From assembly GCA_001724265.1 (NCBI GenBank), contig MEDY01000004.1:124001-188000 (forward strand): DNA of 64,000 nt, written 5' to 3'. The stretch comes from Rhizaria sp. SCN 62-66 (taxonomy: Eukaryota). Of this stretch, positions 1-23,594 are shown one piece after another. Under the pieces are notes generated by a model. It ran no database searches and was not told the DNA's origin. It saw only the letters and a list, made by a program, of their open reading frames with translations. Position 1 is the first letter of the stretch. Each line of letters starts with the position of its first letter. The position numbers and the translations under genes were made by a program.

Positions 1-745
1 GCGCCTCTGGTTTTTCCCATGTTTGTGGCATGTACGGCCACGCGTATGCGCATGTTGCTTAGCACGATTTTGCGTTTGGAGGCTTACAGTGATCATTGTG
101 TTTCGTTTGGCCATCTTATACTCTCGTGACTTCTGGACCGAAACGCAGGTTCAGTTCAAATAGCAATCCAACATGGATATAAGAAGGTCTTGCAATGACT
201 TAAGCATATGTATCAGTACATATCCTATATCTGGGATACTTGTGCGCAGACACAATAACTAAATTAAGCTTATTTATGCGCGTATATCCCCGGTTTTACG
301 TTCATTTTTTCTCTGACGAAGGAGGGCCCGATCGCGTGCGTACGGTTTAGACGGGAGCCTGGACAATTTCGATCATCTATTTAAAAAACAATACACTGCT
401 GTCTTATTTATTTTAAGTTGAGTTAGTTGAATCGAGTTCGTTCTTGGTCAGATATCGCGTCTTTTGTGCCACTTCTAGAGTCCATTTTTCGACCCCGGCT
501 TGACTTTTTCCTTCGGGCTCCTAGCCAGGCCGACCGAGTGCTCGCTCCGTGTCGACCCCGCAAGTTTCGCGGCACTCCTCGGTTCGCTATATTTTACTCG
601 CCTTAAGTGGGAATTTCTTTACTTTAGAGCAGTCGGCGTGTTTTTCTACATAGATCACTTTTCATTTTCCCGACATCGCTCACTTTGCCCTCAACTTTAT
701 CCACTTTGCGCGCCCGGCCTTCTCTCCCGAATAGTTTCCTGGCAG

Positions 746-2947
746 ATGTCCAAGAACAAGACCCGCGTCGCGATTAACGCTGTCGCCGGTAAGGCGAACA
801 CCAAGGAGAAGGTTTCCAGTGGCCAGGCCTCCGTCGGTATCGACTTCGGCACCACCAAGATCTCCATCGCGGCCTACAAGCCCGACATTGGCGTCTTCGA
901 CATTATCGTCAACGAGGATGGTGAGCGCGCCACTCCTTGCTACGTTGGTTTCACCAACACCGAGCGTGTCATTGGTACCCCTGCCAAGACTGCCGTCTCC
1001 CGTAACGTCGAGAACACTATCCACTCGTTCCGTGATGCCCTCAACTCCTCCTTCGGCGCCCTCCCCGCCGCGCAGAAGTCCTACGGTGTGTCCGTGCGCC
1101 CCGACGAGAATGACCGCACCGTCTACGAGGTCAAGTTTAAGGCCGAGGCCACGATGGTGACCCCCGACGAGCTCATCCAGGCCCTCTTTGAGCGCGTCAA
1201 GGCGCACGCCGACGGCTACTGGGATGAGGACGTCAAGAACCTCGTCCTCTCCGTGCCCTCCACCTTCTCCGCCGAGGCCCGCGAGGCCATGACCGCGTGC
1301 GCCAACAAGGCCGGCTTCGCCGTCACCGCCGTGCTCGCCGAGCCCCTCGCCGCCGCCATTTCCTTCGGCCTCGATGACGAGACCGCGGCTGATGCTGCCA
1401 TGAAGAAGAACATCCTCGTCGTCGACGTCGGTTCCTACTCGACCACCTTCTCCGTGCTCTCATCCCAGCACGGCCTGCTGTCACTCATCGACACCGACTG
1501 CACCCAGGAGATCGGCGCTACCCACGTCGACGCCCAGCTCTTCACGCACTTCTCCAAGGTCTTCACCACAAAGTTCCAGCTCGACCTCTCCGAGTCCAAG
1601 CGCGCCACCACGCGTCTGCTGCAGGCCTGCGAGGGCGTCAAGAAGTCCCTGTCGTCCATGCCCGCCGCGTCGGTCAAGCTCGACTCGCTGTTCGAGGGCC
1701 AGGACCTCTTCGCTGACGTCACCCGCGCGCGCATGGAGATGATGTGCGACTCGCTCTTCCGTTCCCTCCACAACGCGCTCGTCGCCTTCTTCAAGCGCCC
1801 CCACAACGTCCGCGCCTCGGCCATCACCCACATCGTGCTCGCCGGTGGCGGCGCCGCGCTGCCCCGCACCCAGGCCGTCATCGAGAACTTTTTCGCCGAG
1901 CAGACCGGCGCCTTCACGGCCACCGTGCTCAAGCAGACGCACCCCTCCGAGGCCGCCGTGTTCGGCTGCGCCAAGCAGGCCTCGCTGCTCGCCGGTGTCC
2001 CCGCCGCGCGCATGGCCGACACGTGCGCCGCCGCCCGCGCGCTCAAGGCCAAGATCGACGCCTCGGGTGTCGTGGCCGTGAGCACCGCCGACGCTAACAA
2101 GCCCGTGTTCGCGACGGTTCACAATGAGGCCTACGCGGCCCCCGTCTTCGCGCTCGCCAAGGCCCTCGTCGCCAAGTCCGCCTCGGGCGCCTTCGTGCCC
2201 GTGCTGCCCGCCGGCACCCCCGTGCCTTGCTCCGTCACGCTCCCCTTCGCCGCCGCGGGCGCCGCCGCGCTCGCCCTGTACGAGCAGCAGTCGGCCACCG
2301 AGTTCGCACCCGTCGCCTCAGCCGCGCTCCCCGCGCCCGCGGCCGCCGGCGCGCCGCTGCAGGTCCGCGTCGCCGTTGACGCGCACCACAAGCTCACCGT
2401 GTCCGTCGCCGCCGTGGCCGCGGACCGCAAGCCCCGCGCGAACGAGTTCAAGACCGTCATCACCTCGGCCCTCAACAACGAGCTCCTCTCGGCCGGCGCC
2501 GCCGCTGCGACCACGGGTGCCGTCGAGAAGGCTCCCTTCGCGGCGCAGCAGACCGTCGCCGCGCAGATCACCGCCTTCGCCGAGCAGTGGGGCAAGTGGA
2601 AGGCCGCCAACGGCGCCGCCGCGTTCCTCAAGGCCGCTTCCGCTGAGGCCGACGCCAAGGTTTCCGCCGCCGTCGCCACCGCTTCCGCCGCCGCCGACAA
2701 GCTCCCCGCGCTCGCGGCCCTGAACGCCTCGCTCGCCGAGGTGCAGGAGGCCGTCGCCGCCGTCGTCATCCTCTTCAAGAAGGGCCCCGAGGTCGCTGCC
2801 GCCGAGGCCGCCGCCGCCGCCCGCGCCGCTGCCGCCGCCAAGCGCGCCGCCGCGTCGCCCGACTCTGATGACGACGAGGATGAGGACGAGGACGAGGACG
2901 ACGATGACGAGGAGATGATGGACATCGGCGGTGGCGACCTCGATTAA
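746..2947 (+). CDS. HSPA14: Atypical Hsp70, HSPA14/Ssz1-like (ribosome-associated complex subunit), ~733 aa
   Basis: Hsp70 NBD motifs GIDFGTT, IIVNEDGERATPCYVGF, LAEPLAAAISFGL, LDSLFEGQDLFADVTRARMEMMC. Degenerate DVGSYST and IGATHVD motifs, a reduced substrate-binding region and no EEVD fit the HSPA14/Ssz1 type. ATG at 746 chosen because the upstream part of the ORF is pyrimidine-rich and non-coding-like. Ends TAA. Confidence 0.8.
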   Translation: MSKNKTRVAINAVAGKANTKEKVSSGQASVGIDFGTTKISIAAYKPDIGVFDIIVNEDGERATPCYVGFTNTERVIGTPAKTAVSRNVENTIHSFRDALNSSFGALPAAQKSYGVSVRPDENDRTVYEVKFKAEATMVTPDELIQALFERVKAHADGYWDEDVKNLVLSVPSTFSAEAREAMTACANKAGFAVTAVLAEPLAAAISFGLDDETAADAAMKKNILVVDVGSYSTTFSVLSSQHGLLSLIDTDCTQEIGATHVDAQLFTHFSKVFTTKFQLDLSESKRATTRLLQACEGVKKSLSSMPAASVKLDSLFEGQDLFADVTRARMEMMCDSLFRSLHNALVAFFKRPHNVRASAITHIVLAGGGAALPRTQAVIENFFAEQTGAFTATVLKQTHPSEAAVFGCAKQASLLAGVPAARMADTCAAARALKAKIDASGVVAVSTADANKPVFATVHNEAYAAPVFALAKALVAKSASGAFVPVLPAGTPVPCSVTLPFAAAGAAALALYEQQSATEFAPVASAALPAPAAAGAPLQVRVAVDAHHKLTVSVAAVAADRKPRANEFKTVITSALNNELLSAGAAAATTGAVEKAPFAAQQTVAAQITAFAEQWGKWKAANGAAAFLKAASAEADAKVSAAVATASAAADKLPALAALNASLAEVQEAVAAVVILFKKGPEVAAAEAAAAARAAAAAKRAAASPDSDDDEDEDEDEDDDDEEMMDIGGGDLD

Positions 2948-3401
2948 GCGCTCAGTGCCGACGACTCTGCATGCGTTGCCCCCTTGCAACGACTTTTTCT
3001 CTCATGTTACGTTAGATTACACACCACTTTACAAACAAAAGCTTTTGTGACAAGCCGTGCTTTAGTTTTTATAGTCCTTTTTTTCGTTTTGATTTCTTTC
3101 TTTTCTGCGCTACATTCGCCTGCGCTGTGCGACACAGCGGTGCGATGTGGTTAATGGTGAGCAATGGGCCTGCCTAGTGCTGTGTGCGCGGACAGAAGCC
3201 GTTTGCTTCGCCACGCCACGCCAGTTAAACTTCAGTTCAACTAAGCTGCCAATACATATACTTTTTAACTCCACTACGTACTCGTTCTGTCTATCTATTC
3301 TGTATATTCTGTGTCACTTCTATTAACAACATTTAACATCCATTCACATCTTAAAATCATAATCAATATTGCACTACGCCGTGTAGTTCACTCGCATCGA
3401 C

Positions 3402-3663
3402 TCACCGCGCGGCCCTCTTGGTGAAAACCATCGGTGCGGGCTGCAGCAGCCCGTCGAGCGGCTCTACGGCCGAGTCGAACAGCCCGCCGCGCGCGCCCTG
3501 CCCCGCGAGCGCGCGCAGCACCGCGCCCTCGACGCCCGCGCTCGCCTGCGCGCGCGCCGTGTCATGCGCGTGTGCGTGCGCGTGCGTTGGCGCCGGCCAG
3601 TCGCCGTAGCTGTCGCCACCGGGAGGCAGCGCGCCGCGGCTGGGGTCGCCCCACGCTTGGCGC

Positions 3664-3717
<54 letters not shown>

Positions 3718-6700
3718 AGCGGGAACTCGTAGCCGTACGCGTCGGTGTCGCTCCCACGGCGGTAGTCGCTTGTGTTGCGGTTGCTGTTGCGGCGATCGGT
3801 GTCGTCGTTGTGACGGTAGCGGCGGCCGCTGTCGTAGCCGTCGCCGCCGTTGCCCGCGTAGTAATCATACTGGCGTGGCTGCTGATCGCGCCCTCGGTAC
3901 TCGTGACCACCGTGGCCGTGACCACTATGGCCGTAACCACTGCGCGGCGAGTAAGGCGAGTTGTAGAAGCGCGACACCGACGACTCGGGCCGCTCGTCCC
4001 ACGAGTCGCGTCTCTGCTGCTGCTGACGCTGCGCCCCGCGTGCGCTGTGCTGCTTCGACGGAGGGCTGTTGGCGGTGAAGCCCGCCGCGAAACCCTGCTG
4101 GTAGCCGACGTGGCGACGCTCGCGGTCGCTGGAGTGACGCTCACGGTGGTGACCGTTGTTGTTATCACCGTCGCTGTCAGTGTCGGTGGGGTGCGGCACG
4201 CGGGACAGCAGCGCAAGCAGCACCTCCTTCGACGGCGGCGCGCCCGTTGCCGTGTCGAGCACCTGGCCGCGCGCGTTGATGAACACGCCGGGCCCCATTC
4301 CGAGTTCTGACAGCCCGGACGCAGAGTCGCCGTTGGCCTGCTGCTGCGGCTGCGCGTGTGCGGGGGCGCGGGAGGAGAAGACCGGCGTCTGCGCTTCGCG
4401 CGGCGAGCGCACCGTCCGCGGTGACTGCGCAGAGCGCGGCTGTGCAGCGCGCGGGGAGTGCACTGCGCGCGGCGAGTGAACGACAGGGGGCCCGGAGCGG
4501 GGCTGCGCGTGCGTGCGTGCGCGCGCGTCGTCGTTCGTGTAGTTGTGCGCATACACGCGTTGCTCCTGTTCCCGCCCCTGCGACTGCGGCGGCGAGCGCA
4601 GCGGCTGCAGCCCCTCGCGGCCGGCCTGCTGCTGCTGCTGCCACCACCGTGCGCGCCGCTGCTTGGGCGCGTCGGGCGCGTCAGGGTCGTACGCGTCCCT
4701 CCGCTCGTGCACATGCGCGCCGCTGAGACAGGCGTGCCCGTGGTCGGGCGCGTGCGCGTGCTGCGCGTGCTCCGCGGGGCCCGGCGCCGCGCACGTGCTG
4801 CCGCGGCACAGGATCACGTCGCCCTCGCGCCGCCAGACCGCGGTGTCGATGTCGCCGCCCGCATCGCCCTCGCACGCGTGGTCGCCGCCGTACGTGAGCG
4901 GACACTCCTCGGCGGCGAGGATGCGCGCGCGCGTGCGGCCGGTCCCGTGCGCCGCCGCGTGCGCGCACAGCGCGGGCGTCACGGACCGCGGCGGATGCTG
5001 CGACTGGAAGTGCTCGTCCCACGGCGGCCGCGCGCTGCGCGACGGCGTGCGCGAGATCCCGCGCCCCGAAGGCGTGCGCGACAGGCCGCGCGACGGCGTC
5101 CGCGCCGGGGTGCGGCCAGTGCGCGACGGCGTGCGCGGAACCTGGCTAGGCGCGCCGCCGCAGTCCTGGCGCGCGCCGGGCACCGCCGAGGCTGCGAGAG
5201 TGTCGTTGACGGCGCGCTGCAGTGTGCGCGGCAGCTCCGGCGCGTAGGGGTAGCGCTGCGGCGCGTCCCACAACGACGGGTGCGTGACCCCGCTGCCACA
5301 CGCGTCGTACTCGTCGTCGACTGGACCGCCGCAGCTGGCGCCGTCGCCGTCGGCGCCGTAGCCGTCGTGGGCGTATCCGCAGCGCTGTCCGGGCGCGGCA
5401 GGCAGCGGGCGCAGGTGCTCAGTGTCCACCACGCGGTCATCGGGGCGCGCGGCGTCGAGCGCGGACAGCGACGACGGCGCCGCGTAGCCGCCCTGGCCGC
5501 CGCGCGCCTCGATGCGCCGCCGCAGCAGCGCGAGCTGCGCCTTGGCCGCGCGCGTCACGCCCGCGGTCGCGGCGCGCGCACGCGCGGGCGACGGCGCGGG
5601 CTCGCCGGGCGGGAGGCGAGCCACGCCGCGCACGGGGCTGCGCAGCACGTCCACGGGCAGCGGGAACACTGGCCGCGGGCCGCGCGGCGCCGCGGCAGGC
5701 GGGCTCGACAGCGCGCCGACAAAGCGCGAGCTACCACCTGCGCTGGAGGGCGTCTGCGGCGGGCGGCCGCTCGCGCCGCCGTTTCCTGCGTCTGGATTAT
5801 TATTGCTGTTTGCATTGGCCTCCGTGGACTCAGCGGGACGGCGCGATGAAGTCGGGATTTCGGGCGCGGAACCGGGCGGCAGAAACGCGCCCGCCCCGCC
5901 ATACTGGCTCTGGTTCTGGGCGTACGCAGACGCAGGCGCGGGCGCGGGTGCGAGTATAGGCGCGCCGTGCTGCAGCGGCGCGGGCGGGGCCGAGTGCGCG
6001 AGTCCGGCGGCGACGGCGCCGTGGGGAAAGCGCAGCAGCGGGTGCGCGCGGGCCAGTGCGGCGGCCGCGGCGGCGTCGGGCGCCGGCGGCAGCGACGCCG
6101 CGGAGACTGCGGCCGCGGCGGGTGCACCGTAGCCGCCGCCGGGCGCGGAGGACGCGAACACTCCCTGGCCGAGGCCATGGGCCGCGCTGCCAAAGTGGCC
6201 ATGAGGGCCCAGAGACTGGCCGAGCGAGGGGAGCGCGGCGCGCTGCTCTGCGCCGGCCAAAACGCGCAGGTACTCGTCGGCGACGCCGCCGCCGCTGGCG
6301 CTGCTGCCGGGGCCGAATGCCGCTGTGGCTGCGGCGGTGCGCGAGGGGAACGGGGCCGCCAGCGCCGACAACGCGGAGTCTGTGGGTGCGGGGAAGACCT
6401 GCGGGAACGAAGGAAACGCGGGCATCGAGGACGCGAGCGTGGTCGTGAACAGCGACGACGACGCCGAGGACGCATGCGGGGCGACGCCGGGCGCAGTCGC
6501 AGCGGCGGACGCGGCGAGCGCGCGGCGCGCAGCGATGTCGGCGGCCGCGGAGGAGTGGTGCGCAACGGCAAGGCGCACAACGAGCTCGCCAGTGGCTGCG
6601 ACGGCGCCGGCGGGGGAGTAGAACGTGAACACGCCCTTGCGGTAGCCGGCCAGGGAGTCCGCGCGGGGCAGCGCGGGGGACTTCGCGAATGCGGTGAGAT

Positions 6701-7243
6701 CCACCGCGGCAGTGCCCAGCACGCGTGCCGGCTGCGTCGCAGAGAGCGAGGTTCCGGGGGCCGCAAACGCGGGGTCGGCCAGGTCGACGAGCATGGCGTA
6801 GAGCGGGAGCTGCGTGAGGACGGCGGCGAGCGAGCTCTCGCCCAGCCGCATAAGGCAGGACTTGCCGCGCTGGAACTCGATCACGCTGCGGGGCAGCACG
6901 TCCGCGTTGGGCAGCAGGTCCGCGGCCGCGGCAGAGGCCAACACGCGTGGAGCAGGGTCTAGTGGCTGGACCACAATCGCGGGGAAGTCGAGCAGATGGA
7001 ACGACACGGCGGGGCGTGTTAGACCGGAGGCATCTGTGACGCAATGTGGAGTGGGGGGTCAGATGTGGTGTGAGTTGAGTGAGGTTTTTGATATGAACAG
7101 CTGTAAACGATGTGTTAGGCACTATAAATCATCTTTCAGACATTAATAAAACATTAAATTGACGTACTCTATGTTGGGAAGGCGACCCAGTGGACGAAGA
7201 GCTCCAGAGTGAAGGGAACCGCTGTCTCAGGCGCATGGGACAT
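3402..7243 (-). CDS. MAP10: MAP10-like microtubule-associated protein (N-terminal C2-type domain plus long disordered tail); exons 7243-7168 and 7033-3402; ~1235 aa with in-frame TAG at codon 25
   Basis: Spliced N-terminus MSHAPETAVPFTLELFVHWVAFPT*NASGLTRPAVSFHLLDFPAIVV...IEFQRGKSCLMRL resembles the MAP10/KIAA1383 N-terminus as I recall it (FSLELLVDWV...PAVAFRLLDFPTLLV...FGRGKSCLFRL). Phase-1 intron GTACGT...CACAG. Ends TGA. Confidence 0.75.
3666..3716 (-). repeat. (CAG)17 microsatellite encoding polyglutamine
   Basis: Uninterrupted (ctg)17 on the plus strand, Q17 in the MAP10-like frame. Confidence 0.95.
7034..7167 (-). other. Spliceosomal intron (134 nt) of MAP10-like gene
   Basis: Donor GTACGT, acceptor GTCACAG, AT-rich; splicing joins two MAP10-like motifs in frame. 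Confidence 0.85.
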
Positions 7244-7440
7244 GATGTGCGCCAAGGTGGGGACCTATGCAAGTTTAATCAAATATTCAAATAAAACGCG
7301 TCAGAGAACAGTTATTTATCTTGATATGCGATCGAGTAACGGACACTATACGGTGTTGTAGAATGTAACTTGATGCCGAACTTTATGACCGTTAGAGTCC
7401 GCTCGGTTGGCCAGCCTCGACACTTTGAACGACCTTCAAA

Positions 7441-7581
7441 GTAAGTTCGTTTCACATGCCGTGTGAGCTGAATCGACCGTCAATCGGAATGTGCGTACGA
7501 GTTATGACTATATATCATCGAATTTAACACATTTTATTTTCTCAATTCAACCTGTTTCTCAATGTTCCTCTTCATAAACAG
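7441..7581 (+). other. Possible 5'-UTR intron of the gene starting at 7635
   Basis: GTAAGT at 7441, AT-rich body, pyrimidine tract and AAACAG ending at 7581. Confidence 0.4.
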
Positions 7582-7634
7582 ACGTTACTACAGACCTCCG
7601 CGACCAAGCAAGCGCAACGCTCAACCTGAGCAAA

Positions 7635-10600
7635 ATGTCAGCAGACGTACGTATATTATGACTGTTAGACTACTATGATCGATTTTGAACGCATGCCATA
7701 AACTAAAAACTCATTTTTATGTCTATATTGTGTTACAGGATTGGGATATCGACGCGTATATCGAGGAGCGCATCGGTGGGGATAAGATCACAGCAGCGTC
7801 ATCCTCCCCGAGAAAGGCTCCCGCAGGTGAGTTCGCTTACGCCAGCTCAATCATTCCACCACCCTCTATGCAACAAACTACGGGCCCCGCGTTGGGTGGC
7901 ATCTATGCTATGGACGCGCGCTACAGTATGCCTACCGCGGGCCCCGCACTAGGATTGGGCATGGGCCTCGGCTTAGACCCCTCTGGCAACCTTCCGCCTA
8001 TTGCGGGCGCCACCTCGAGCGCAAGCACCAAGAGCGCGTCCGGTGCGGCAACGTCCCGCTCGCCCAGCAAGACGCGCGCCACGGGTAAGGCCATCCGCGG
8101 CGGCTCCGGCAAGTTTGCATACGTGTCGCCGCGCGAGTCGGCCCAGCGGCAGGCGCGCGCGGGCCGCCCCAGCAACAACAGCAACGCGCGCGGCGGCGGC
8201 CGCGGGCACCCGGGCTCGCCGCCGCCCTAGGACCGCGCGCTGGCGCAGGAGCTGATCCGGCGCTACGACCGCGAGCAGGCCGAGGCGCGCCGCGCGCAGC
8301 AGCAGCGCAACGACGAAATGGCCGCCGCGGCGCGCGCGCGCAACGCCGCCGCCGCGCAGGCCGAGGCGCTGGCCCGCGCGCAAGCCCGCGAGGCGGAGCG
8401 CCAGGACAAGATTGCGCGCCACGCCCGCGCCGCCGGTGGCAGCAGTCACGCCGGCGCCGTCGCCACCGGCGCGGTGGGCGCGCCGCTGGCCCGCGATACG
8501 CTGACGCCGCTGGCGGGCGCTGAGCGGGCGAGCCAGGAGAAGGTTAGCGCCCTGACCGCGGCGCCGGCGACGGACCTGGCCGCGATTGCGCCGGCGGACG
8601 ACGCATTCTCGCGCGCGCTGGTCAACAAGGTCGAGCAGCTCGAGGCGCTGGTGATCGTGCAGCAGCAGCAGCTGAAGCTGCACGCGCAGGTCGTGTCGGA
8701 GCTTAAGGGCCGTCTCGACAACGCGCGCCGCCGCACGCCCTACGGGGCCACCAGCGTGTATGGCGGCAGCTCTAGCTCCTCAGCTTCTGCGCCCCCGCGC
8801 GGCGCGCGATACCCCGTCCAGCGCGCGCCCCGCAACGCCCACGGCGCAAACGGCGCCGCGCCGCGCGGACAGGGGCAGGGGCTGGGCGATGCGGGCCGCG
8901 CGGCGCCGGACGAGGCGCGCGAGCGGCGGCTTCAGGCGCTAGTGGACCGGCTGTACCAGCGCAACGCGGGCCACAAGACCGTGTCGAGCGTCGGCACGGG
9001 CGCGCCGGAGCCCGCGGGCCAGACGCGCGGACCGCTGCGGGGGGCCGCGACGCAGGCGGGCCACCGGCGCATCGGCGCCGGCGCGACGCAGGCGCAAGGC
9101 CAGCACAACCCCGGCCGCACGACGCGTGCAGCGTCGACTGTGCGCCGTCCCGCGCCGCCGCCCGCGCGCCCCACCGAGAGCGCGACGACAACAACGACGA
9201 CCAAGCCGGAGGACAAGAGGGCTGAGGACGGCGGCAAAAAGGCTGTTGTGATTGTTGAGCCGTCTGCGGGGCCTAAGTCGGCGCGCGCGCTGTCCAAGCC
9301 GCGCTCGCCATCGCCGTCGCCGCCGCCGCGTACCTCGGCGCGCGAGCCAGTCAAGCCCGCCGCTGCTGCGCCTGCACCCGCCTCTGCCCGGACTTCTAAG
9401 AGCCCAGCACCGACGACTGCAAGGAAAGACAACGACAAGAAGCCCGAGAGTGAGAGCAAAATCAGCGGTGCTGAGACCGGCGCAAAGCCTGATGCCCGTC
9501 ACTCTGCGCCTCCCAAGCAGCGCGAGCCCAGCTCTAGTCCCCGCAAGCCTGCACCCGCTGCGACCGCGACGCCTGCGACCGCGCCTGCTGCAAGCAAGAG
9601 TGAGTCCCCTGTCCCGTCGCCCCGCGCCACTGCGCCGTCGTCGCCGGCCAAGTGCCCCGCTAAGTCTCCCGCCAAGCCTGCCGCGACGAACGCAGCCGCT
9701 GTTAGCACCGCTAAGAGCCCTGTGAAGCCCGCTAAAACAGAAACGAAGAGCACTGAGAGCAAGACGACTGAGAGCAAGAGCACTGCCGACGCTGGTTCAT
9801 TGTTGCTGGCGCAGTCTGCTCTGACTAAGGCTGCTGCTGCCGAGGACTTGAGAGCGCGGTCACAGGCTTCCGCCGTTGCCGCAGCGTCCGGCGGCGGCAG
9901 CGGCAGTGACGATGATTATGGGGATGACTTCGAGAACGACTTTGATGCGGCCGCTGCGGTGCTTGCAGATGAGCCTGTTGACAGTTCGGATGTTAAGAAG
10001 TCCGTACAGAGCGATTTTAAGCCCGCTGCTGCTACTGAAGTCGCCGATGATGTTGACGACATGTTCGAGGCAGTCGACGCGCTCAACGGCCCCTCCGCTC
10101 CTGTGGCGCCGCAGCCTCCGAAGCCGCTGGAGGAGGAGGCGGTGACGTCGACGCGCACGCTGCGCGACGGCGACAGCGCTGGCACAGGCAAGAAGAGCCC
10201 CGAGCCTGAGTCTTTGTCGGCCGCGTCGGTCGCCACCGTCACTGTGCTCGCCTCGGCGCGCGCGCTGCCGCGCCTGGCGGCCGGGTCCACCGCGAGCACC
10301 GGCGACGGCATTGCTGACGAGGTCCCCGACCCCGTGATCTTGCTCGTCGCCGTGCCGCGCGCTCAGGCCGCCACGCTGCGTCCCAACGCGCCCGCGCTGC
10401 GCGTGCCCGGCGCCGTGCTGCTCGCCGCGACGGAGCCGCAGCGGTCGACCGTGAACCCCGACTTCGCGTCACCGCTGCTCGTCGACATCCCCGTTGCCGC
10501 TGTTGTTGCTGGGGCCGCGGCTGCCGTCGGCGACGTTGTCGTCCGCGTTGAGGTGCATCACGCGCCCGGCCGCGCGGGCCCGCTTTCGCCTGCCGCAGCC

Positions 10601-12085
10601 ACTGCGCTGGGCGCCGACTCGCTGCTCTGTTCCGGCGTGTGCCAGCCCGCGCAGGTGGGTGCCCTGGCTGTGCGTGGACACGCTGCGCCCGTCGCAGTTG
10701 CGCTCGCGCCGGGTCCGCGCGCCGACTCCCGTGGCAGCGCGGTGACGGAGCCTGCGCAGGTGCTGCTGTGGGCTCCCAGCAGCCGCCAGCTCTTCACGCC
10801 GCCCCCCGCTGAGGCCCCCAAGCCTGCTGCCGCTGCTGTTTCCCCCGTTATTGCTGCGAACACATCTTTTGTGGCGGCGTCGCCTGCGTCGGGCACGTCT
10901 GCTTTTGCGGGCTCGCACGCTGTCATCCCCACCGCGTCATCCACGGCAGCGTTTGACGACGACTTCGAGTTTGATGACGCACACGTGAACACTGTTCCTA
11001 ACGACAACACGGCGCTCGTGTCGCCCAAACCCATGGCAGCGCCCGTGCCGGCGTCGCCTCCCGCGCCCGCAGCCGTGTTTGGCGCCGCGCCTTCGCTTGC
11101 ACCCGCGACGCCCGCGCGCCCACCTGCAGCTGTGCCGGTCGCTACTGCGACTCCGGCTCAGTCGGCTGCGCCCACGGCGAGCCTTGCGCTGCCGGCGTCT
11201 CCCGCCACCCAGCCCTCTGCCGCGCCTGTGGCTGCGTCAGCAGCGATGAGTGACCCCTTCGACCTTGATGATGAGCTTTCAATGTTTGCTGCGCAGCCCG
11301 CTGGTAGCGCTGCGAACAATGCTCCTGCTGTTTCCCAGCCTGCAGTTGTGGCGCCTGCGACTCCTTCGAAGGCGCCGGAGTCGCCTGCGAAGTCACCGGT
11401 CAAGCCCGCCGCTGCACCTGCGCCTGCATTTACGCCTGCGCCTGTGGCTGCCCCTGTCGCTGCCGTGCCTGCGCCCGTCCCCGCGACTACTACTACCCCC
11501 GCTAAGAAGCCCGCACCCAAGGCCTCGTTCCTTGACCACGATGATGACATGCTCAACTACACACCCATGCCCGCTGCTGCTACAGTCCCCGGTCCTGCTC
11601 CTGTCGCTGCCACTCCGGCCGTTGCAGCAAACCCCGCGCCTGCGCCTGCTCCTGTGCCTGTTCCTGTTGCTTCATCGTCAGTGTCGTCATCATCGTGGCT
11701 TAATGACGAGCCCGTTGTCAAGCCAGCAGTTGCTGTCGCCGCGCCCCTGCCTGCGCCTGCGCCCGTCCCTACGTACGCAGCCGCATCTCCCGTGGCGCCG
11801 TCCGCGACGATGACGACGGCGGGCGGCAAGTCTAAGCCCTCGATGCTCGCCGGACTCATGAAGCCGAAGCCCGCTGACGCCGCCGCGGCTCCCGCACCTG
11901 CTGCGCTCGCGACCTCTGTTGCCGCACAGGCTCAGCCCATGCCTGCTGCTGTGCCTGCGCCCGTATCAGCGCCTATGTTTGCCCCTGCGCCTGTTGCAGC
12001 CTCGGCAGCTGCGCCTGCGCCAGCGCCGGCCGCTGCTCCTGCAAAGAAGGCTGACGACGACTACGACTTCGATTTTGATCTTTAA
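7635..12085 (+). CDS. Uncharacterised ~1452 aa protein: coiled coil, KSP-rich linker, copine-type C2 domain, Pro/Ala tail with acidic-aromatic motifs; exons 7635-7646 and 7739-12085; in-frame TAG at 8228-8230
   Basis: ATG TCA GCA GAC|gtacgt...tacag|GAT TGG GAT ATC. ORFs 7685..8230 and 8318..12085 share a frame and are linked by 29 open codons (DRALAQELIRRYDREQAEARRAQQQRNDE). C2-like segment ASARAL...PDPVILL...TEPQRSTVNPDFASPLLVD...VRVEVHH. Ends TAA. Confidence 0.75.
7647..7738 (+). other. Spliceosomal intron (92 nt)
   Basis: Donor GTACGT, acceptor TTACAG, AT-rich, phase 0. Confidence 0.8.
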
Positions 12086-12309
12086 GCATCCAAAGACATG
12101 CTAAGAAATTTCTTTACATAGCCAACACATGATAAGTGTATCAATAAATATTGTTTTATTTTCAAACGATGTCCACAAGTACGTTGCAGATTATGCGTTG
12201 ATCGCTTCAGTTAAATATGACCACGCGCAAAATGTGTGCTAACATTTAGCATCACACACCCTCGCGCGAAACGAAACAAGTCGGATGAACAAAACAAAAA
12301 GCTGAGGAG

Positions 12310-12333
12310 TTTTTTTTTTTTTTTTTTTTTTTT
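12310..12333. repeat. T24 homopolymer in a convergent intergenic spacer
   Basis: 24 consecutive T, directly visible. Confidence 0.9.
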
Positions 12334-12646
12334 ATGAGTGACGGAAAATTTCTGATGCGACAGATGATGATTTGTGCTGCAGAGTGCGCTTGAATGCTCA
12401 ATTGACTCGACATCGAAGGAGCGCAACAGGAAACCTACGTCATGATGACGATTGTGTGAGTAAATGATGAATCGAACAGTGATGTGAAAAGAAACACGAA
12501 AAAAATAAACTGAATCAATAGGGTATGCAGAAAGTGACGTTTCAATGTTAACAAAAAGCTAGTAATCGATACGATAGATATAATACATCAACACAAGTAA
12601 CCTTGTGAGAGAGAGTGTTTTGGTGTAAATTGGCATTGTGCGCAAT

Positions 12647-15600
12647 TCACCAGACGTTTTTGGCGAGGTGGAGCGCACGGAGCGCGAGCGTGAGATCGAG
12701 CAGCACGTGCGAGAGCGACGTCATCGCGTACATGAATGCCTGCTCGGTGAGCAGAAAGAGTGTGGGGTACATGGCGAAGCCGTCGGGCGTGGTGTTGACC
12801 ATGCGCTCGCGACACGCGTCGTCGTAGCTGTGCATCAGCTTCGCGAGGATCTTGTACAGCTGACGGATGCGCACGCGCTCAGTGGCCCACTCCATGACTG
12901 CCTCTTGCCGCGCAATCAGCTCATCCTTCTCGGAGTCGGAGGAGCTACTGCTGCTGTCGGAGCTGTCGCTGCCGCTTCCGCTGTAGTCGTCGTCAGAGTC
13001 GTCACGCCGGCCTGAACCACTGCGCTGCGGCTGCTCAGGCGGCTGCTGTTGCTGTTGTTGTTGCTGCTGCTGATGGTTTTTCTGCTCGTGGACTGTCTCA
13101 TGATGCTAATGGTGATGACCGTGGTGATGATGATGGTGATGGTGGCTGTGGTGCTCGGTCTTGGCTTCGTCGTGGTCCTTAGCGGCAGGCACGAAGATGG
13201 TATTGGCGCCCGCACGGCCGTTGTCCTGATCAACACGCGCCATGAACTCTTCCAAGCGTCGGTGCCGCTCATCGCGCTCGCGTTCCTTTTCTTCTACGGT
13301 CGCCGCGGACAGCCCGTGCCGCGACAGCGCCATGTGCGCGTGCGAGTTGCTGTGGTGCATCGCACTGCTGACGCCCGGAAGGAGACTCGACTCGTGCCCG
13401 CTAAGGCGGCATGCATGCGCGCTGGGCGAGCCAGTACGCGAAGGCGGCCGCGACAGCGCGGGTCCGGTACCGGCCGCGGGCGCGGGCGAGGGGCCAGAAG
13501 AGAGCGCGGCGCTGGCGCTAGGGGTCGCGTTGCCCGATGCAGTTTGCCGCCACTGCGCAACCATCTCTTGCAGCGACAGATGGAGCGCCGCTGTGCGCGA
13601 GGCCGCGACACTGGGGTGATAGACCGTCTGCGAGGCCCCGGGCAGCGGCGGGCGGCCCGCCGGGTCGACGGCCACGTGCGCCGGCCCAGGCACGCCCGCC
13701 AGCGCCGGGCTTACGCGCGTGCTGTGGGTCGACGCCGCAGGGTCAGGAGACGCGCCCGCCTGCGCGGGGCTGGCACGCGAACGCGCCAGTTCGCGCGCGC
13801 GCTCCTTCTCGGCCTTGCGCTGGCGCGCCTTTACGAAAGCACGCTTGTCCTTAACGCGGTGAATCTCGGCTTGCGCGTCAAAGTGCGTGCCAAACTCATC
13901 ATCGTCCTCAAGCATCTGCAGCTCTTCCAGCACCTCTAGCGACGGCTTTGTGCGCGAGAAAGACGAGTTGCGCGACAGCTGGCGTCCAAATGGCGCCACA
14001 GCAGTGTCAGGTGCAGCCTTGTCGCCGGTGTTGGCGGTCCCGGGAGCGTCGCCGTCGGACTCGGTGTCGCGGGCAGGGGAAGCGTTGCGCGAGCCCAGCG
14101 CCGCACCGCTGGCGGGAGAAAGCGCAGCGTTTGCAGCGGAGCTCTTTGGCAGCGCCGGAGCAGTGACCACAGGCGCGAACGCCTGGCGGTCGCGCTGGGA
14201 GAGGTCTCCTGCACTGGCTGAGTGGGCCATCCCGCGCGGCGCGTGCGCACGCGCCACCACAATCGTCGGCGGTGCAAGCTGGCTCTGATGCAGGAACTGA
14301 TGCTGATGAGTGTTAGTGGGCGCAGGCGCTGGAGTAGGCACAAGCACAGGCGCAGGTACAGGCACTGTCGTCGTTGTGGGTGCGGGCATAGCGTCAGCGT
14401 CAGCACCAGAAACTGGGGCGACGAGGGCAGCCTGTTTGCGCAGCAGCTCGTTCTCCTGTGCCTTGCTAGTTTCGAGCATCGCACTGATCGTCGCCAACTG
14501 CTGCTGCAGCTGCGCCTGTAGTGACGATGCACTGTCACCACCACTCGAAAGAACACCAGCAGCGGCGTCGGGGACAGTCGCAGTTACCGTGACAGTCGCA
14601 GGCGCGGCGGTGGCGGTGGTGTCGGAGCCGACCACGGAGTCCGAGGGCGAGATGACAAGACTTAGCCCCGCGGGACGCGCGGCGACCTGGCCAGACAGGT
14701 TGCTGGAGCGTGAGCGCGAACGCGAGGGAATGACGACAAGCTCAATCTCGCTGCCGAACGCAGTCGCGGGTTTGCCCTTGCTCTTGCGCTTGCGCGCGCC
14801 CTGAGCAGACTTCTTTCCGCAGCAGCACTCACCGCAGCACGCGCAAAAGCCGTTCCCACAACCAACACGTTTGCGCGCGCGACGGCGCTCCTTACGGCGT
14901 TGCTTGGCGGCCTGCTCTGGCGTCTTGGAGCCACAGATAATGTGGAGCATGCCGGCCTTGGACTCGTCGATGCGGTGGTTAATGTCGTGAATGAGCGCCA
15001 TGAGCACGCGGCACGCGGCGGCGACGAGCTCCGCCATCAGCATCGTCGTCGGCATTTCGGGCTTGGCCTCGTGGCGCAGGCGCCCGCCCGCGGCCGAAAG
15101 GTCGACCTTGGCGACCTTGGGCATGTGGGCCACAACCCAGTGATGCGCGAAGAGACATTCCTGCATGCGGCCCAGCACGCGCACAAGCGTGACCTGATGC
15201 GTGATCACTTCGTGCAGAATGTCGCACGAGATGGACCGGCCCAGGAACGCCGGCTCCGAGGCGACCTCGTCCGCGAGCAGCCGCTGCGCGCCGATGGCGG
15301 CGTTGATGCCCGCGAGCTTGGCCGCGACTTCGCGTTCGTACGCGGTCATGAACGACGTCGAGCTGCGACCCATGACCGAGTTGGGGAAAATCACCTTGAA
15401 CGCCTGCCGCATCGCTGAGTTAGCCGCAAACGGGTTCGCAGTCTGCTGAAGCTGCTGCTGTGCGGACTGATTAGCGCCACCAGCTGCAACAGCGGTGCCA
15501 GCGCCGATGCTCAGCTTGGCGCCCGTTGTGGGGTTAATGCCTGCGGCGGTAAGCGCCTCCGCGGCGACGCGCTCAGCCTCTTCGGCAGCGGACGGCGCGA

Positions 15601-18600
15601 GCGCGTATTCGTCAGCTGACAGCGCAGGCAGCAGCGTGGGCCCGAATACGATCTCGGAGAGCTCAGTTGATGCCGATGAATGGTTGCGCAACAGGTGGAA
15701 GTGCAGTTCAAGCGTTGAGGCCGAGGCCTTGAGCACGGAGACGATGCGCTTGAAAGCGCCAGTCTCGGCGCGCTCCGGCCACAGCGCGGCAGCCACGAGC
15801 ATCGAGACGAGCACGCCGATGATTGTCATCTTGATACGTGCTAGCGCGAAGGTCTCGGCGCCGATCACGGGATCGTAACCTAGTGCAACAATACTTGCGG
15901 CATAACCAGCGGCAAAACCGATGGGCCCGTTGTTGGGACTTGTGCGCAGGTAGCCAACAATGACGGACCAGAAGCCCAGCAGTGCGGCGTTGGCGAAAGC
16001 CCAGTCAGCACCGCGCGAGGAGTCGATTTCGAGGGCGAGAATTGCGACAAAATAGCCATACATCGCACCGAGAACGTTACCGGCGAGACGATTGAAGCCT
16101 GCGACGAGACTGTTGCCGACAGACTCTGTGAAGATGAGGCCAACTGTTATGGGGGCCCACTGCGGCACGTAGATGGTAAAGGGCCACGGGACCAACAAAG
16201 TCAGCGCACTTATCTCAATTGCAACCACGAAACGCAGCGCCGTCTTGATCTTGGTGATGCCCTTCTCGTCGGGCACCACAAGCCACTTCAGCGCAGATGT
16301 GAAGCGTCCCCACGCAGTGAGCTGCGCCGCGGGCGTGGTCTCCGCTGCGGGCGCGCCGGGCCGCGGCACGGCCGTCATGAGCTGCGGCGGCGGCTTCGGC
16401 GGCCCGTCGCGCGCGCGGCGCCAGAACTCCCACATCGCCGTGAAGACGTGCGGTAGCAACACGTCGACGAGCGAGTCGGCTGTGAAGAGCCGCGCCGGCT
16501 TGTAGTAAGTCGGCACGGGTGCGGGCAGCGGCACGTAGCGAGTCACTGAGCCCAGCCCGAGACCGAACAGCGTCTTGGTGTTGACATCGCGGAGCACCGC
16601 CTGCGCCTGTGATCGCACCGCCTCCTGCGACAGCGCACCGGCATGCGACGGCGGCACGTCGGGCTGCGAGGGCATCACCGTAGGCACCGACGTCAGAGGC
16701 TGCGGCTCCAACGGCTCTGGCGGCGGCGGCAACGGCGCTGTCGTCGTGATGCGGTTCGAGCTCTTGCGCGTGCCGCTGCCGCCCACGGCACCAATGACAC
16801 CGGCTGCAGGCTGCTTCTGCTTCTGCGCCGGGGCAGGCGTCGCTGCGGGCTTGTGAGCAGAAGCCGCAGCAACTGCAGCAGCATGCGCAGAGGCTTGCGC
16901 GGCCGCTGCATGGGCGGCAGCGGAAGCCGCCTCAGCGGCCTGCGCAGCGCCAAGCTTCTTAAGATCGATGGCCTCGGGCACGGCCTCGGCCGAGGCACTG
17001 GCGGCGGCGATGTCGACCATGGGCGGCATGATGTCGTCGGCGTGGGCCAGCGCGACAGGCAGCGTGGTGACGAGCGTGGACAACGGGTACATGTGGGGGA
17101 ACACGTGGGGCGCAATGCGGTGCACGAGGCGCGAGGTGAAGCGGTCGAAGTTAAAGAAGAAGTGGTTCATCACAAGCATGTCCTGCACTTTGACGAACTG
17201 CTGCTCTTCTGCGTGTTGGCGCTGGATCTCCTCGGCGCTCTTGCCGCTGAAGCCGCTCGTGACGGACGCGCTCGATGTGGGGGCGCTGTGCAACGGCATA
17301 GACTCAAGTCCAGGCCCAGTCCCGGGCACAGGCGCAAGCGGGGCCGCGGGTGGCGGCAACGGACCCTTTTTCTGTCCGAGCTGCTGCCCCTGCCACTGAC
17401 CCACACCGAGCGCGGGATCTTGAGCCTGGTCGGGCCCCGACGAGGGCGAGGGTGAGGAGGTCGGCGATGGCGACGCTCGAACACCGTTGCCAGCACAGGT
17501 GCTGGCATTGCTCTCGATGCGATTGAGCGCGTTCATCGAGGTGATGCGCTCGAGTGTGGCGGCCGAGTTAGAGTACTTGCCGCCGAGCCCGCGGGACGAG
17601 AACACCGCTGCGGCATAGTCAGCCGAGGCCTGTGATGACACGTCAACAAACGCGCCGCCGGTGGACAAAACAGGGCCTGCCGAGCCAGAGCCAGTGGCAA
17701 CACGCAGACGGGCGTTGCCCGTGCCCGAGCCAGCGCCATGAGCCCCGTTGCCTCCACTGGGATGGAGTGACCCGGTTGACGAGGTGCGCGACGCAAGCGG
17801 GTGAGCGCCAACAGACGCATTGCCGCCGCTGACGCTGTGGTGCAGCGAGGTGGCCGACGCGGCGGGCCGCAGCCCGGCGACAGCGGCGTGGGGCTGCTCT
17901 GCAAGCGCCATCGCGGCCGTCGTGGGCGGCAGTCCGATGCTCGTGATGGGTCGGTGCGAGAGCGTGTGTGACAGCGGCATCTGCTGCAGCGGGACCGAGG
18001 CCTGGTGTGGGTAGGCCGCGGGCACGGGCTCGTTGTCAGGCTCCACTACGACGCGGTTGCGGAAGAAAACGGACTTGCGCGTGCGCGAGAAAGTGCCCCA
18101 CATGTGGTGCAGCGACGCCATGAGCGTCGTGTAAGAGCCGGGAGCGTAGGGCGCGGAAAACGTCAGTGCGGCGTCGGGCGAGCGCAACAACATCGCGGTG
18201 ACTTCGTCGACTTCTTGCACGTCAGCGTGCTCCGCGGACGCAAACTGTACAGCCTCTTGCGCGTTCGTCGGCGCGTTGGGATCCACAACAGCATTTAAAC
18301 CGGCGCCAGTGTTAGCGGCACCGGCGCCAGCGTCCGAGCCCATCTCGATCGCGATGTGGTCAGGATACACGCTCTCGGCGGCCGCGCTAGTCGCGTCGGC
18401 CGCAGCGCGCTGGACGGGCGAAGTTGGCATCTCACCGGCCAACACGGCCGCAGCCGCGAGCGCGGCGTCGGGCTCAAGTCCGCGGGCCTCGCGCGGCGGC
18501 GGCAGAGCCAGCAGAGCGATGGACATGCCCGTGGCGGCCGCGCGCGGCGAGTCCGGGATCGAGTTGCGCCGCACGCGAGTTGCCACAGCGCCAGGGACGT

Positions 18601-21600
18601 GCTCATGCTGCATAGAGCCCGCAGCGTAGCTTTGGGGCATCGCGTGAAACGGCACGACACCGGGGTTCCCAGCAGTTGCGGCGCCACCAGTGGGCGCGGC
18701 CGTGTTCATGGCGGGGCTGGAGGCTTCGGCGGTGGTGGCAGCGTTGTTGGCGGCCGCAGCAGGCGCGCCTAGCACGAGTCGCACGCGCGCGTGGCGTTGG
18801 CCGCGCACCTCGTCCTCGTCGGAGGATGACTCATCCGCGTCGTTGTCTGGGTCCGCCGCGTGGTCCATACCAGCGACGTACACGCCGAGCTTGCGCAGTC
18901 GGTTCTGCACCGACGCGAGCTCGCGCGCCGCCGTCTGCGACGGCCGCCGCGCGCGCTCCGCGGGCACCGACAAGGTGTCCACGCCCGCAGCTATATCCGA
19001 GGTGGAGTAGCTCTCCGCGCGGCGTGGCACGCCGTCGGGCCCGACAGTGCCTGCGCCGACCGCAAAGGTGCGGCTGCGGCCCAGCACGGTGTGGTTGGTG
19101 TCCTCAGTCGCGCCGGGCAAAGCACCACCCCACGGGCCCTGCGTCTGCGCGTGCAACTGCGCTTGCGGCAGTGTGTTAGCATGTTGGAGCAGACCATGTT
19201 CCCCGTCACCAGCAGTCTCAATGTGCGGGGCGATTCCGGCGGCATCCGAGGCGGCGCGCGCACGCACAAGACCGCCCTTCTCGACATCAAACGCGTCGTC
19301 GTCCTCTTCTTCGTCGCAGACCATGGCGGCGTCACGCGAGGCTTGCTCGGCGACCACGGACCGCGCGCTCTGCTGCACACGACTCGGCGCACCGCGGCTC
19401 TTGCCACCTAGACTGCTCTGGCTGTGGCTGCGGCTGCGGGCCGTCGCGGCCAGGTGCTCTGCCGAGTGCGGCAAAACCTCGAACTCATCAGCAATTGCGT
19501 CAGCCTTAGCGGCTGCGGCGACTTCGCGGAGCTCAAGGTCAGCGTTAAGCGCAGCCGTGGCCTGTTGCACTGCGCGGTCAATGCCGAAAAAGGCGTTGAT
19601 GTAAGTGGCGTCGATAGGCGCAAGGTCGTCGTCCTTGGAGACCATCTTAAAAACGAACTCCTTGACGGCTTTGGTGACGTGGCGCATGTCATACTGCAAC
19701 TCCTTGACAAAGGTGCTGTGCATGTACGCACCCGTAACATCCATACGCGTGATTGTGCTCAGCGCCGTCACCATGCCGCGCGCGTTGGACATCATACCGG
19801 AAACCTCGGCCAGGAACTGCTGCGCTGACGTCGACGAATACGGCACGAACGCAACGTGCTTGGGTGAGCAGAACGGCGGGTAAATCGGGTCAGGTGCACG
19901 GAGACCGAAGCCGTTGTTGCGCTTCATGCGCCAGTGGCGCGGGCGGAAGCAGCAACAGAAGGCCTTGTAGAGCGTCCGGTGCAGCCAGGACTCGGCCTGG
20001 AGGTCAGGCAGCTCGGCAATCGAGGCCGCAACTTCGGCGTCAATCTTGCCGATTAGAAACGTTGCCTCCTTGATGAAGAGGTACGTGAACGGCAGCGACA
20101 CTGTATTCGTGTTGGCGGTAGCGATGTGGAGCCCACGGAGGTCTTTGAGCTCGTGCATGCGGTCGATCTTGTCGCCCACGTCGGGCCCAGGCGCGTCGGA
20201 CGCGCGCGAGTGGTAGGTGCGGTCGTAGTTGCTCTGCGTCTGTGTGTGCGAGTGACCGTGCGTCTGGGTGCCCGATTGTGCGTTCGTGTACGTTTGCGAG
20301 CCTGGGGACGAAAAATGGACGCCGCGGTCGCCGTCTGCGTCCACGCGCACGTTGCGATCGCATCCACTGGCGTGGCCATCTGACCCCGTGACAGTCACTG
20401 GCAGTGACAGCGGCGCGACACAGCTAGCGACGCCTGCGTAGACAGGAGACAGAGGCACCGGCGAGGTCAGTCCTGAGGGCACAAAACCAGAGGCAGAGCC
20501 AGTGGCCACGGTCGCAGTCTTGGGGCGGACCGTTGAAACCGAGGAGGAAGGCGGCAGTGAGGGCAAGATAGGACCTGGCGGCGGCGGCAGCGGCCCCTTT
20601 GCGTTATCGCCAGTTTCGAGCCGCAATGCGGTCACAGGGGAGCTCTCGACAAAGGCCATGGGCGACGACAAGGCCGAGACCGCGGGCATCGTGGGCACAC
20701 TGACTGTAGGCGGGATCTCGGAAGGCGGAGCCATGGGCGCTACGGCAAGCCCCGCAAAGGAGGTGCTACCCGAGAGACCCAGCTCCCGCACAATGTGGTC
20801 CTGCTCGCTGCGGCCGCGGCCCTGGCCATCTCGGTAATCGCTGTCGCTGTTGCTGCTTATGCAGGCGTCGTTGAAGCTCGACGCAGGCTCCAGCCAAGTC
20901 GTCTGTGCAGCTGCTCTCGCACCAGCACCAGCACCGGCGGCGACACCTAAGCGCGCGTCCGAGATCGTGGCGGGGAGAACGCGGGCGCGCGCACCGGGGC
21001 TGCTGTTGGTGGTCACAAAAGAGACCTGTCCGGCCAGGGGAGCCGACGCAAGCCCCGACGCATAGCCGGTCAAAGGGGCGCCGGCCACGGGCGTGGACCC
21101 GTGCGCAGGCGTGCCGTTGGCGGGCCGCACGGCCATCAGGGGCACCATGCCCGGCGGCGCGCGCGCAATGGCGGCCCGCATGGCCGCGTACGCTGCGGCA
21201 CTCGCATTCGCGCTGGCACTGGAGCTCGATCTCCCAGAGGCCACGGGCGACAGTTGCTGCGAGAACGCGTCCAGCGGTGCGTCTGGCAAGCCGGGCGACC
21301 CGGGCCCGGTCGGTGCGGTGACCGTAGGTACGTGGTGCCCAGTAGCCCCGGCCTTACTCCCTGTCGGAGAGCTGACGCCGGGGCTGGCGAGCCCGCCGCC
21401 AACGCCGCCGGTGCCAGTGCCAGTGCCGGTTGGAAACCCGGTGCGGAATCCACCGTCGCCGTGGTCGGGCGCGGCGTCGTGCTGGTCGTGATCGGGGTGC
21501 CGCGCGGGCAGCGAGAGCGTGGCGTCGTCGCGCGTTCTGAGCGTGGTACTGTCGGCAGCGGAGAGAAAGCCGTTGGACAGCACGTAGAGCAGGCGCGACG

Positions 21601-22577: not shown

Positions 22578-23442
22578 TGCGGAATGACGGCCAGGGAGCT
22601 GGAGTAAGGCGAGGGTCCCGAGGCAGCTGGTGTGGCGACACGCCTGCATTTTTTTTTCGGGCAGGTTTTTGAAGGGCAAAAGAGAGCAGGGAAAGGTGTG
22701 AGCAGGTCCGTAAACACATATTGTAGATGGGGAACACACGATTTTGGAGTTAGAGTGTTGGAAGAGCTGTTAAGACATGGATAAACCGAGAGGTTTGTCA
22801 CCTCCCACCCCCTGGCGATGGACATGATGACGATTTGCGCGTGGACGTGGAAAACCATAAGCAGACAGAAAATTATAAAAGCACAGTAGAGAACCTCCAT
22901 AAAATGCACTATCTTTAAATCAACAGATCGCATTGACGTGTCGCTGCACTGCATTTGACTCAAATAGTTACCTCAACTCTCCCGATTCTTTTTAGCGACT
23001 GGCAGCCATAGTGCAGCCATAGACAGTCTACGGACTCGGTCACGCGCAGAATTGGTGCTATTTGATCACGAGTACAATACCAATAATACGATGTACAAGC
23101 AATAGATCTAGATATAATGTTAGACATACATATCATTACATATAAGTACATAATATGGAGTAAAATTCCTCATATAAGACGAAAACGTTGCGTGTTAAAA
23201 GAAATTGGTGACGGCGGACTTTGGGAGTTAACAGCGCGACTCTTAGCTGTCGATACGAGCATGACTTGTAGTTCTCAGGAATTCAATGCGTAAAGGGAAC
23301 TATAATGCAGAGAATTTACACAATAGTATTCGTTTTTGATGCAACGAGCAGGTCATTACTTCCAGACGCTCATACTATTCAGCTTCATTGCGAAGTGTCA
23401 CAATTCGGACAGCCCACACTTCGAGTGTGTGCGAGGTAAGCC

Positions 23443-23594
23443 GAAGACCCAGAAAAGACGCATATGCGGCGGTATCATGTTGTCATGCAGCACTGCAAGA
23501 ACAAAGTACACGGCCACAAAGCCCAGGTTGATGCCGAGGCGCGAGAACGGGAAGATGAGCGAGACAAGCATCGACGTCAGGATGACAGCGACGA
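23443..23594 (-). pseudogene. Relic 152-bp fragment of FUSC/ALMT paralogue A N-terminal TM region
   Basis: Colinear, no indels, with 21776-21927; about 26 mismatches by hand count (~83% identity); flanks are AT-rich and unrelated. Confidence 0.8.

Follow-up and report, generated by a model that had tools for sequence, protein, structure and literature searches.

A 64-kb stretch of contig MEDY01000004.1 from Rhizaria sp. SCN 62-66 (positions 124,001 to 188,000, hereafter the window) contains on its minus strand a predicted two-exon gene for a protein with a MAP10_N-like domain, and an in-frame TAG at codon 25 of this gene separates two motifs that are conserved in the family. In the most likely explanation, to which we assign a probability of about 0.78, this organism uses UAG as an infrequent sense codon, with UAA and UGA left as the stops. 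The sequence evidence supports the narrower claim that the protein can be made only if this TAG is decoded. The elements of the gene, numbered from the first base of the window, are as follows.

7168-7243, minus strand: exon 1, with the ATG and motif 1, then the TAG as codon 25, and ending in the first base (7168) of a split Asn codon
7169-7171, minus strand: the in-frame TAG (codon 25), which lies in the variable linker that separates the two motifs
7034-7167, minus strand: predicted phase-1 intron of 134 bases, GC 0.40, with donor A/GTACGT, a C-rich tract and acceptor cacAG (7035-7034)
3402-7033, minus strand: exon 2, with the other two bases of the Asn codon, 1,209 codons and a TGA at 3404-3402

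The exon-1 frame opens with the ATG at 7243-7241 and reads MSHAPETAVPFTLELFVHWVAFPT before it reaches the TAG, with motif 1 (FTLELFVHWV) encoded at 7213-7184. The TAG is followed by a single base, A (7168), and then by the donor GTACGT at 7167-7162. Phase-1 joining would unite this A with AT to give Asn, after which the frame continues with ASGLTRPAVSFHLLDFP. Motif 2 (PAVSFHLLDFP) lies in exon 2 at 7013-6981. The MAP10_N-like domain occupies roughly the first 140 exon-2 residues and the remainder is low-complexity sequence rich in Ala, Pro and Ser; GC content at the three codon positions of exon 2 is 0.76, 0.62 and 0.87. The surroundings are those of a GC-rich eukaryotic window with AT-rich spacers and introns. 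As the exon-2 frame has an upstream TGA (7061-7059) and its first ATG is found only at residue 61, motif 2 needs an upstream exon. On re-reading of the sequence, the ATG at 7243, the TAG at codon 25, the donor and the acceptor were all found where the original prediction had placed them.

We propose that the gene encodes a MAP10_N-domain protein in two exons, of which exon 1 would supply the start codon and the N-terminal motif, and exon 2 would supply motif 2, the remaining domain and the long low-complexity tail once the 134-base GTACGT..AG intron has been excised. The TAG at codon 25 would be decoded as an amino acid, with UAG a rare sense codon and termination confined to UAA and UGA. Such decoding presumes a cognate tRNA(CUA) and an eRF1 that would no longer recognize UAG efficiently.

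Relatives of the predicted protein were collected with exon-2 residues 1-160. A phmmer search of the full library returned 26 proteins at E ≤ 1e-3, six of them at E ≤ 1e-10 (best 4e-15). When 16 of these 26 homologues were scanned with Pfam, PF14924 (MAP10_N) was found in all 16 and was above the cut-off in 14; the HPHLAWLY domain (PF14925) of the vertebrate type was found in four of the 16 (P0024-P0027). A motif of the form F-S-L-E-L-x-V-x-x-V stands 8 to about 40 residues ahead of PAVAFRLLDFP in 16 of the 26 homologues, and the remaining ten comprise four fragments that begin after motif 2 and six proteins in which motif 1 is not clear, two of which have doubtful variants. The Pfam MAP10_N profile begins at motif 2 (PAVAFRLLDFP) in all scanned homologues, and motif 1 is outside the model. 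What the original prediction had called the first MAP10 motif is therefore a feature of the family that lies upstream of the domain, and is not part of the Pfam model. The window protein shares with MAP10 and PF14924 the pattern F-[ST]-L-E-L-x-V-x-W-V of motif 1 and the pattern P-A-V-[AS]-F-x-L-L-D-F-P of motif 2, and the GKSC and PLY.MLVD blocks occur in its N-terminal domain as well. It differs from vertebrate MAP10 in that it is without HPHLAWLY and its tail is unrelated low-complexity sequence. Judged by similarity to its members, the window gene belongs to the MAP10_N domain family; orthology to MAP10 is outside that claim. The 24-residue exon-1 peptide matched no Pfam family, a word-based search for longer homologous proteins with exon 2 gave no match, and a scan of the metagenome collection with the exon-2 domain gave 600 pattern matches of which none was confirmed, so that neither the locus nor a close relative was found there.

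The contribution of exon 1 was measured with a family profile made from 15 of the 16 homologues with motif 1 (P0020 was dropped by the motif filter), the window gene being excluded. With X at the TAG, the joined protein reached 116.4 bits (profile positions 8-145), against 99.4 bits (positions 30-145) for exon 2 by itself and 36.2 bits (positions 84-145) for the protein starting at the first exon-2 ATG. Exon 1 adds 17 bits to the score. A separate 16-column profile of motif 1, made from 15 homologues without the window gene, was run on 6,396 overlapping 40-residue pieces from the six frames of the 64-kb window; exon 1 was the best match at 13.5 bits (E 0.02) and the next piece reached 4.8 bits (E 13). 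Motif 2 aligns to positions about 31-41 of the family profile and to positions about 7-18 of the Pfam profile, and the TAG at 7169-7171 falls in an insert state of the family profile. In the homologue P0012, PFSLEIYVQWVSVPT is followed by V, seven residues and PGV, with the V opposite the TAG; the spacing of its motifs (PT, 8 residues, P-[AG]-V) equals that of the window gene. These comparisons support homology between exon 1 and the N-terminal motif of MAP10_N-family proteins. The earlier proposal that the exon-1 peptide matches the first motif is thus borne out by the motif-1 profile and by the 17-bit gain.

All frame-preserving GT-AG, GC-AG and AT-AC pairs between motif 1 and motif 2 were listed. 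Twelve GT/GC-AG pairs join the motifs in frame and none of them is free of stops. Three of the 12 have a single stop: in 7167/7034 it is the TAG, and in the two others, which use the poor donor GCCTTC, it is the TGA at 7061-7059. The pair 7167/7034 is the only in-frame pair whose sole stop is the TAG. Only three AT-AC pairs are stop-free, all of which start at 7172 with the donor ATAGAG, which we take to be unlike the U12 consensus. Four other introns were recognized in the window.

7647-7738, plus strand: intron of the neighbouring gene, donor GTACGT
22089-22323, minus strand: intron of FUSC/ALMT-like paralogue A, donor GTACGT, phase 2
34379-34582, minus strand: intron of FUSC/ALMT-like paralogue B, donor GTACGA, phase 2
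49905-50032, plus strand: intron of Snf7/CHMP2A, donor GTACGT, phase 1

The five recognized introns range from 92 to 235 bases, are all 5'-proximal and have GTACG[TA] donors. GTACGW was found 37 times in the window against 31.8 expected; as the hexamer is not enriched, a donor one base after the TAG is not a composition effect. Paralogues A and B share the position of their introns, which follow first exons of 84-93 codons. Exon 2 of CHMP2A matches Pfam Snf7 and the intron at 49905-50032 restores a Snf7/CHMP2A protein; a recorded protein of 210 residues is 100% identical over the 198 CHMP2A exon-2 residues and is 12 residues longer, which equals the predicted exon-1 addition. The phase-1 GTACGT..AG joining put forward in the original prediction therefore stands as the sole canonical route between the motifs, with a donor like those of the four other introns. 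Homology together with splice-signal logic strongly supports the model of the MAP10-like gene, with its predicted splicing. Most gene bodies in the window are single exons of 1-10 kb.

In-frame TAGs were also found in four other genes of the window.

8228-8230, plus strand: TAG in the gene next to the MAP10-like gene, which has its ATG at about 7635, the intron 7647-7738 and a TAA at 12083-12085
13106-13108, minus strand: TAG in FUSC/ALMT-like paralogue A, 152 codons ahead of the TGA
30589-30591, minus strand: TAG in FUSC/ALMT-like paralogue B, codon 1,274 of 3,508
42876-42878, plus strand: TAG in a 2,542-codon Ala-rich gene to which no family was assigned

The open codons on either side number 183 and 1,284 for TAG 8228, where GC content at third codon positions (GC3) is 0.85 and 0.93, 3,036 and 152 for TAG 13108, 1,273 and 2,233 for TAG 30591, and 413 and 2,128 for TAG 42876, the last with no AT-rich spacer between. 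Both flanks of all four TAGs have coding-like composition. The support for TAGs 8228 and 42876 consists of open frames and composition only. TAG 30591 is flanked on both sides by conserved blocks common to paralogue A. The two paralogues are 49% identical over >3,000 residues and have one in-frame TAG each, at different places. Comparison of the final 91 codons after TAG 13108 with paralogue B gave 34 synonymous and 15 non-synonymous differences, and the counts at the three codon positions were 10, 8 and 45. This pattern shows that purifying selection acts on the tail past TAG 13108 and that this tail is translated.

Under the standard code each of these four long frames is interrupted exactly once, every time by TAG. 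Open stretches of at least 120 codons that meet across one stop in any frame number 39 (TGA 18, TAG 18 and TAA 3); long off-frame open reading frames in GC-rich DNA lead to many such junctions in any frame. At the four junctions with a flank of at least 1,000 codons the stop is TAG in every case, even though the window contains 2.5 times as many TGA as TAG triplets. The terminators of the 13 genes that could be delimited are TAA (six) and TGA (seven), with no TAG among them. TAG accounts for 4-5 of 18,413 codons (about 0.03%), a usage within about 2.4-fold of that of ATA and AGA (12 each), the least used standard codons; coding GC3 is about 0.75-0.9. The absence of in-frame TAA and TGA from these 18,413 codons is an artefact of stop-delimited segments and was not used as evidence.

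Two other TAGs were considered and rejected. TAG 41281, read as codon 3 of an EEF1AKMT4-like methyltransferase, is probably in the 5' leader, as the solved homologue 2pxx starts five residues before YWD; the ATG ACT TAG at 41287-41279 on the minus strand, just upstream of the methyltransferase, is probably a two-codon upstream open reading frame (uORF). TAG 476 sits in AT-rich sequence upstream of the HSP70-like start. A His codon follows three of the five in-frame TAGs (CAT at 13105-13103, CAC at 30588-30586 and CAC at 42879-42881), too few for a context signal.

A number of observations weigh against UAG as a sense codon, or against the gene model on which this reading is built. The Pfam MAP10_N profile gave 13.9 bits (E 0.055) with exon-2 residues 1-160 and 14.5 bits (E 0.034) with residues 1-110, both short of the PF14924 gathering score of 21.5 bits; the weak match aligns residues 6-82 of the protein with positions 7-75 of the profile. 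No Pfam family, PF14925 included, matched the full 1,209-residue exon 2 at E ≤ 10. As the homologues had been collected using exon 2, the exon-2 score of the family profile is not independent, and only the gain from exon 1 is. Neither a tRNA gene nor an Rfam match was found within the 64-kb window. The 13 terminators are a small sample, with which occasional use of TAG as a terminator is compatible. TAG is found in frame about 10 times less often than off frame, which is also compatible with inefficient or recent reading of the codon. Codon counts indicate that about two thirds of the single-base routes to a stop give TAG, so that the TAG-only pattern is by itself weak against nonsense lesions.

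The comparison with sequencing data belongs on the same side. Of five runs retrieved, four carry part of the stretch; four runs, X1-X4, were compared as contigs, which drop rare forms; X1 is a polyA RNA library, and run depth cannot rank expression. Record 3 of X1 (308 bases, depth 3.6) is colinear with 6907-7214 without differences and retains both the TAG and the intron. Record 26 of X4 covers 7008-8179 unchanged, with the TAG intact. X1 and X4 belong to the same study, and the assembly may derive from X4; intergenic bins too are covered by X1 at low depth, and DNA may be present in that library. Among the 15 joints listed, of 61 in all, for window positions 1-20000 there was no 7168/7033 and none with GT..AG ends. 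The RNA junction 7168/7033 that the original prediction had named is thus not among the joints listed, and the single RNA-library contig over the site is unspliced. We regard the RNA-contig result as neutral to mildly negative with respect to splicing.

It is unlikely, though not negligibly so, that UAG has a dual meaning, i.e. that it is still a stop and undergoes readthrough by means of a near-cognate or suppressor tRNA, or by context, with a reduced yield of protein. Such a code would fit the rarity of in-frame TAG, the well-conserved window genes that are free of it (HSP70-like, Utp21, CHMP2A and lipoate/biotin ligase-like), the CAY codons after three of the five TAGs and the precedent of context-dependent codes in Condylostoma and Blastocrithidia given in PMC5304391. 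However, if termination were efficient, a TAG at codon 25 or in the middle of genes of 2,500-3,500 codons would waste most translation; no gene of the 13 ends in TAG, and the TAG of the MAP10-like gene would be followed after splicing by AAT rather than CAY. Less likely still is a wrong gene model in which the ATG and TAG of exon 1 form a 24-codon uORF in the leader, the intron lies in the 5' untranslated region and the protein starts at Met61 of exon 2. This arrangement is the default under the standard code, the spliced RNA was not seen among the joints listed, and a mini-uORF (41287-41279) probably precedes the methyltransferase, whose homologue has its N-terminus near the second ATG. The cost of the model would be the loss of both family motifs and a drop in the profile score from 116 to 36 bits; moreover, exon-2 residues 5-60 match homologues yet contain no ATG, and exon 1 matches motif 1 with the spacing seen in P0012.

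That the TAGs are nonsense alleles, pseudogene lesions or assembly errors is very improbable, although the single-base mutation routes do favour TAG. Exactly one nonsense change and no frameshift over 1,200-3,500 codons would have to be assumed for each of five of the 13 genes, and because of this and of the selection evidence (34 synonymous against 15 non-synonymous differences in the tail past TAG 13108) we disfavour lesions; TAG 7169-7171 is also identical in the contigs of two runs. We give even less credence to removal or change of the TAG in the RNA, whether by mRNA editing (e.g. U to C) or by a non-canonical intron. The three AT-AC combinations from 7172 do give a stop-free frame, but their donor presumably departs from the U12 consensus, the RNA-library contig retains the TAG (though it is possibly DNA-derived), and the four other TAGs are found within exon bodies that are GC-rich and have no intron signals.

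With UAG preferred as a sense codon, the extent of the change can be considered. The original prediction had argued for full reassignment. In its favour are the decoding of the TAG, the four further in-frame TAGs and the absence of TAG from 13 terminators; these data are compatible with full reassignment as well as with a dual or inefficient code. We tentatively entertain, at somewhat less than even odds, a description in which UAG alone has been captured as sense in a non-ciliate, GC-rich eukaryote, at a stage of very low usage, lower than that of any standard codon; as TAG would then already be tolerated at codon 25 and midway through 3,500-codon genes, termination at UAG would be essentially abolished.

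A code of this kind, with UAG as sense and UAA and UGA as stops, is already known, and the window gives a further case. A search of a limited literature collection found no description of a UAG-sense eukaryote like this one or from this kind of habitat. According to Panek et al. 2017 (PMC5304391), the nuclear code of the rhizarian exLh has UAG as Leu and UAA and UGA as stops. Like the window, exLh is not a ciliate, has only UAG in frame and has only UAA and UGA among the terminators counted; these account for 56 and 15 of 71 terminators in exLh and for 6 and 7 of 13 in the window. The two differ in that exLh has 384 in-frame UAGs in 71 genes and the window about 5 in 13 genes, and in that the amino acid of exLh was fixed from conserved positions whereas the TAGs of the window are all at variable or low-complexity positions. 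According to the same paper, UAG is Gln in Iotanema spirale (Fornicata), and McGowan et al. 2024 (PMC11687900) give Leu or Gln for UAG in phyllopharyngean ciliates. In both, as proposed here, UAG is the only stop codon with a new meaning and UAA still terminates; the lineages differ. These studies report suppressor tRNA genes or genome-wide codon statistics as well, whereas the present data are a 64-kb window, and the genome sampled here differs in being GC-rich with short 5'-proximal GTACGW introns. In Condylostoma and Blastocrithidia, as presented in PMC5304391, a codon of the stop type serves as sense within genes, as proposed here, but the same codon also ends genes; the 0 of 13 TAG terminators in the window are too few to exclude such use.

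The five TAGs are all at variable or low-complexity positions and none is at a conserved column. The residues that face a TAG are V in P0012 for the MAP10-like gene and S in the paralogue, where the alignment is uncertain, and one TAG lies within HHHGHHH-TAG-HH, which is followed by a run of Gln. UAG-only reassignments in PMC5304391 and PMC11687900 are to Leu or Gln. On precedent and weak local hints we would tentatively name Gln as the amino acid, at somewhat less than an even chance; an amino acid other than Gln and Leu is a possibility of about one in three, and Leu is somewhat less likely again.

Codes that give UAG and UAA different meanings are few, and PMC5304391 has two outside the ciliates. 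A further lineage would be an independent case in which to study the co-change of eRF1 and suppressor tRNA and early codon capture. If true, the capture of UAG at a stage of very low usage would offer a rare view of early stop-codon capture outside ciliates, with a very rare codon and under strong GC bias. Standard gene callers truncate or split such genes, and the MAP10-like gene loses its start and motif 1; annotation of this genome therefore needs a code with TAG as sense.

Paralogues A (12647-22577, minus strand, about 3,200 codons) and B (23887-34860, minus strand, about 3,500 codons) are arranged in tandem and have an FUSC_2/ALMT-like membrane domain. Between them, at 23398-23601 on the minus strand, a 67-codon open stretch encodes a sequence (MLVSLIFPFSRLGI...PPHMRLFW) that almost duplicates the first membrane segment of the paralogues, and this looks like a relic fragment of a third paralogue copy.

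The best named relative of Utp21 is from Ploeotia vitrea (euglenid transcriptome), with 40% identity over 45% of the query. For CHMP2A the best named relatives are Rhizaria (Nonionella, Spongospora and Plasmodiophora, 57%), followed by plants; a CHMP2A tree of 25 rows splits plants from all others and does not resolve the remainder. These matches are weak hints to the affinity of the organism, and a feature-based query of a protein atlas yielded nothing beyond clusters of generic eukaryotes. Public metagenomes contain relatives at 70% (Utp21) and 86% (CHMP2A) identity, the latter (P0086) from a contig of 12.5 kb. A metagenome scan with the Utp21 alignment gave 80 loci, the best at 43-44% identity. 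Two loci at this level, L001 (23.6 kb) and L029, have GC contents of 0.52-0.53 and compact genes, some of which appear to end in TAG, so that the TAG reading is apparently not shared at that distance; for the same reason we set these loci aside as uninformative on the present code.

In the HSP70-like gene, a second contig of X4 differs from the window at 23 places within 1003-1195 (plus strand), mostly spaced by multiples of three, a pattern that points to another haplotype, strain or paralogue with changes at third codon positions. At 2669-3335 depth is 80-200 in all four runs compared with 1-15 elsewhere, and many false joints and loose ends begin there. The segment corresponds to the low-complexity end of the HSP70-like gene, rich in Ala, Asp and GC, and draws contigs of other organisms.

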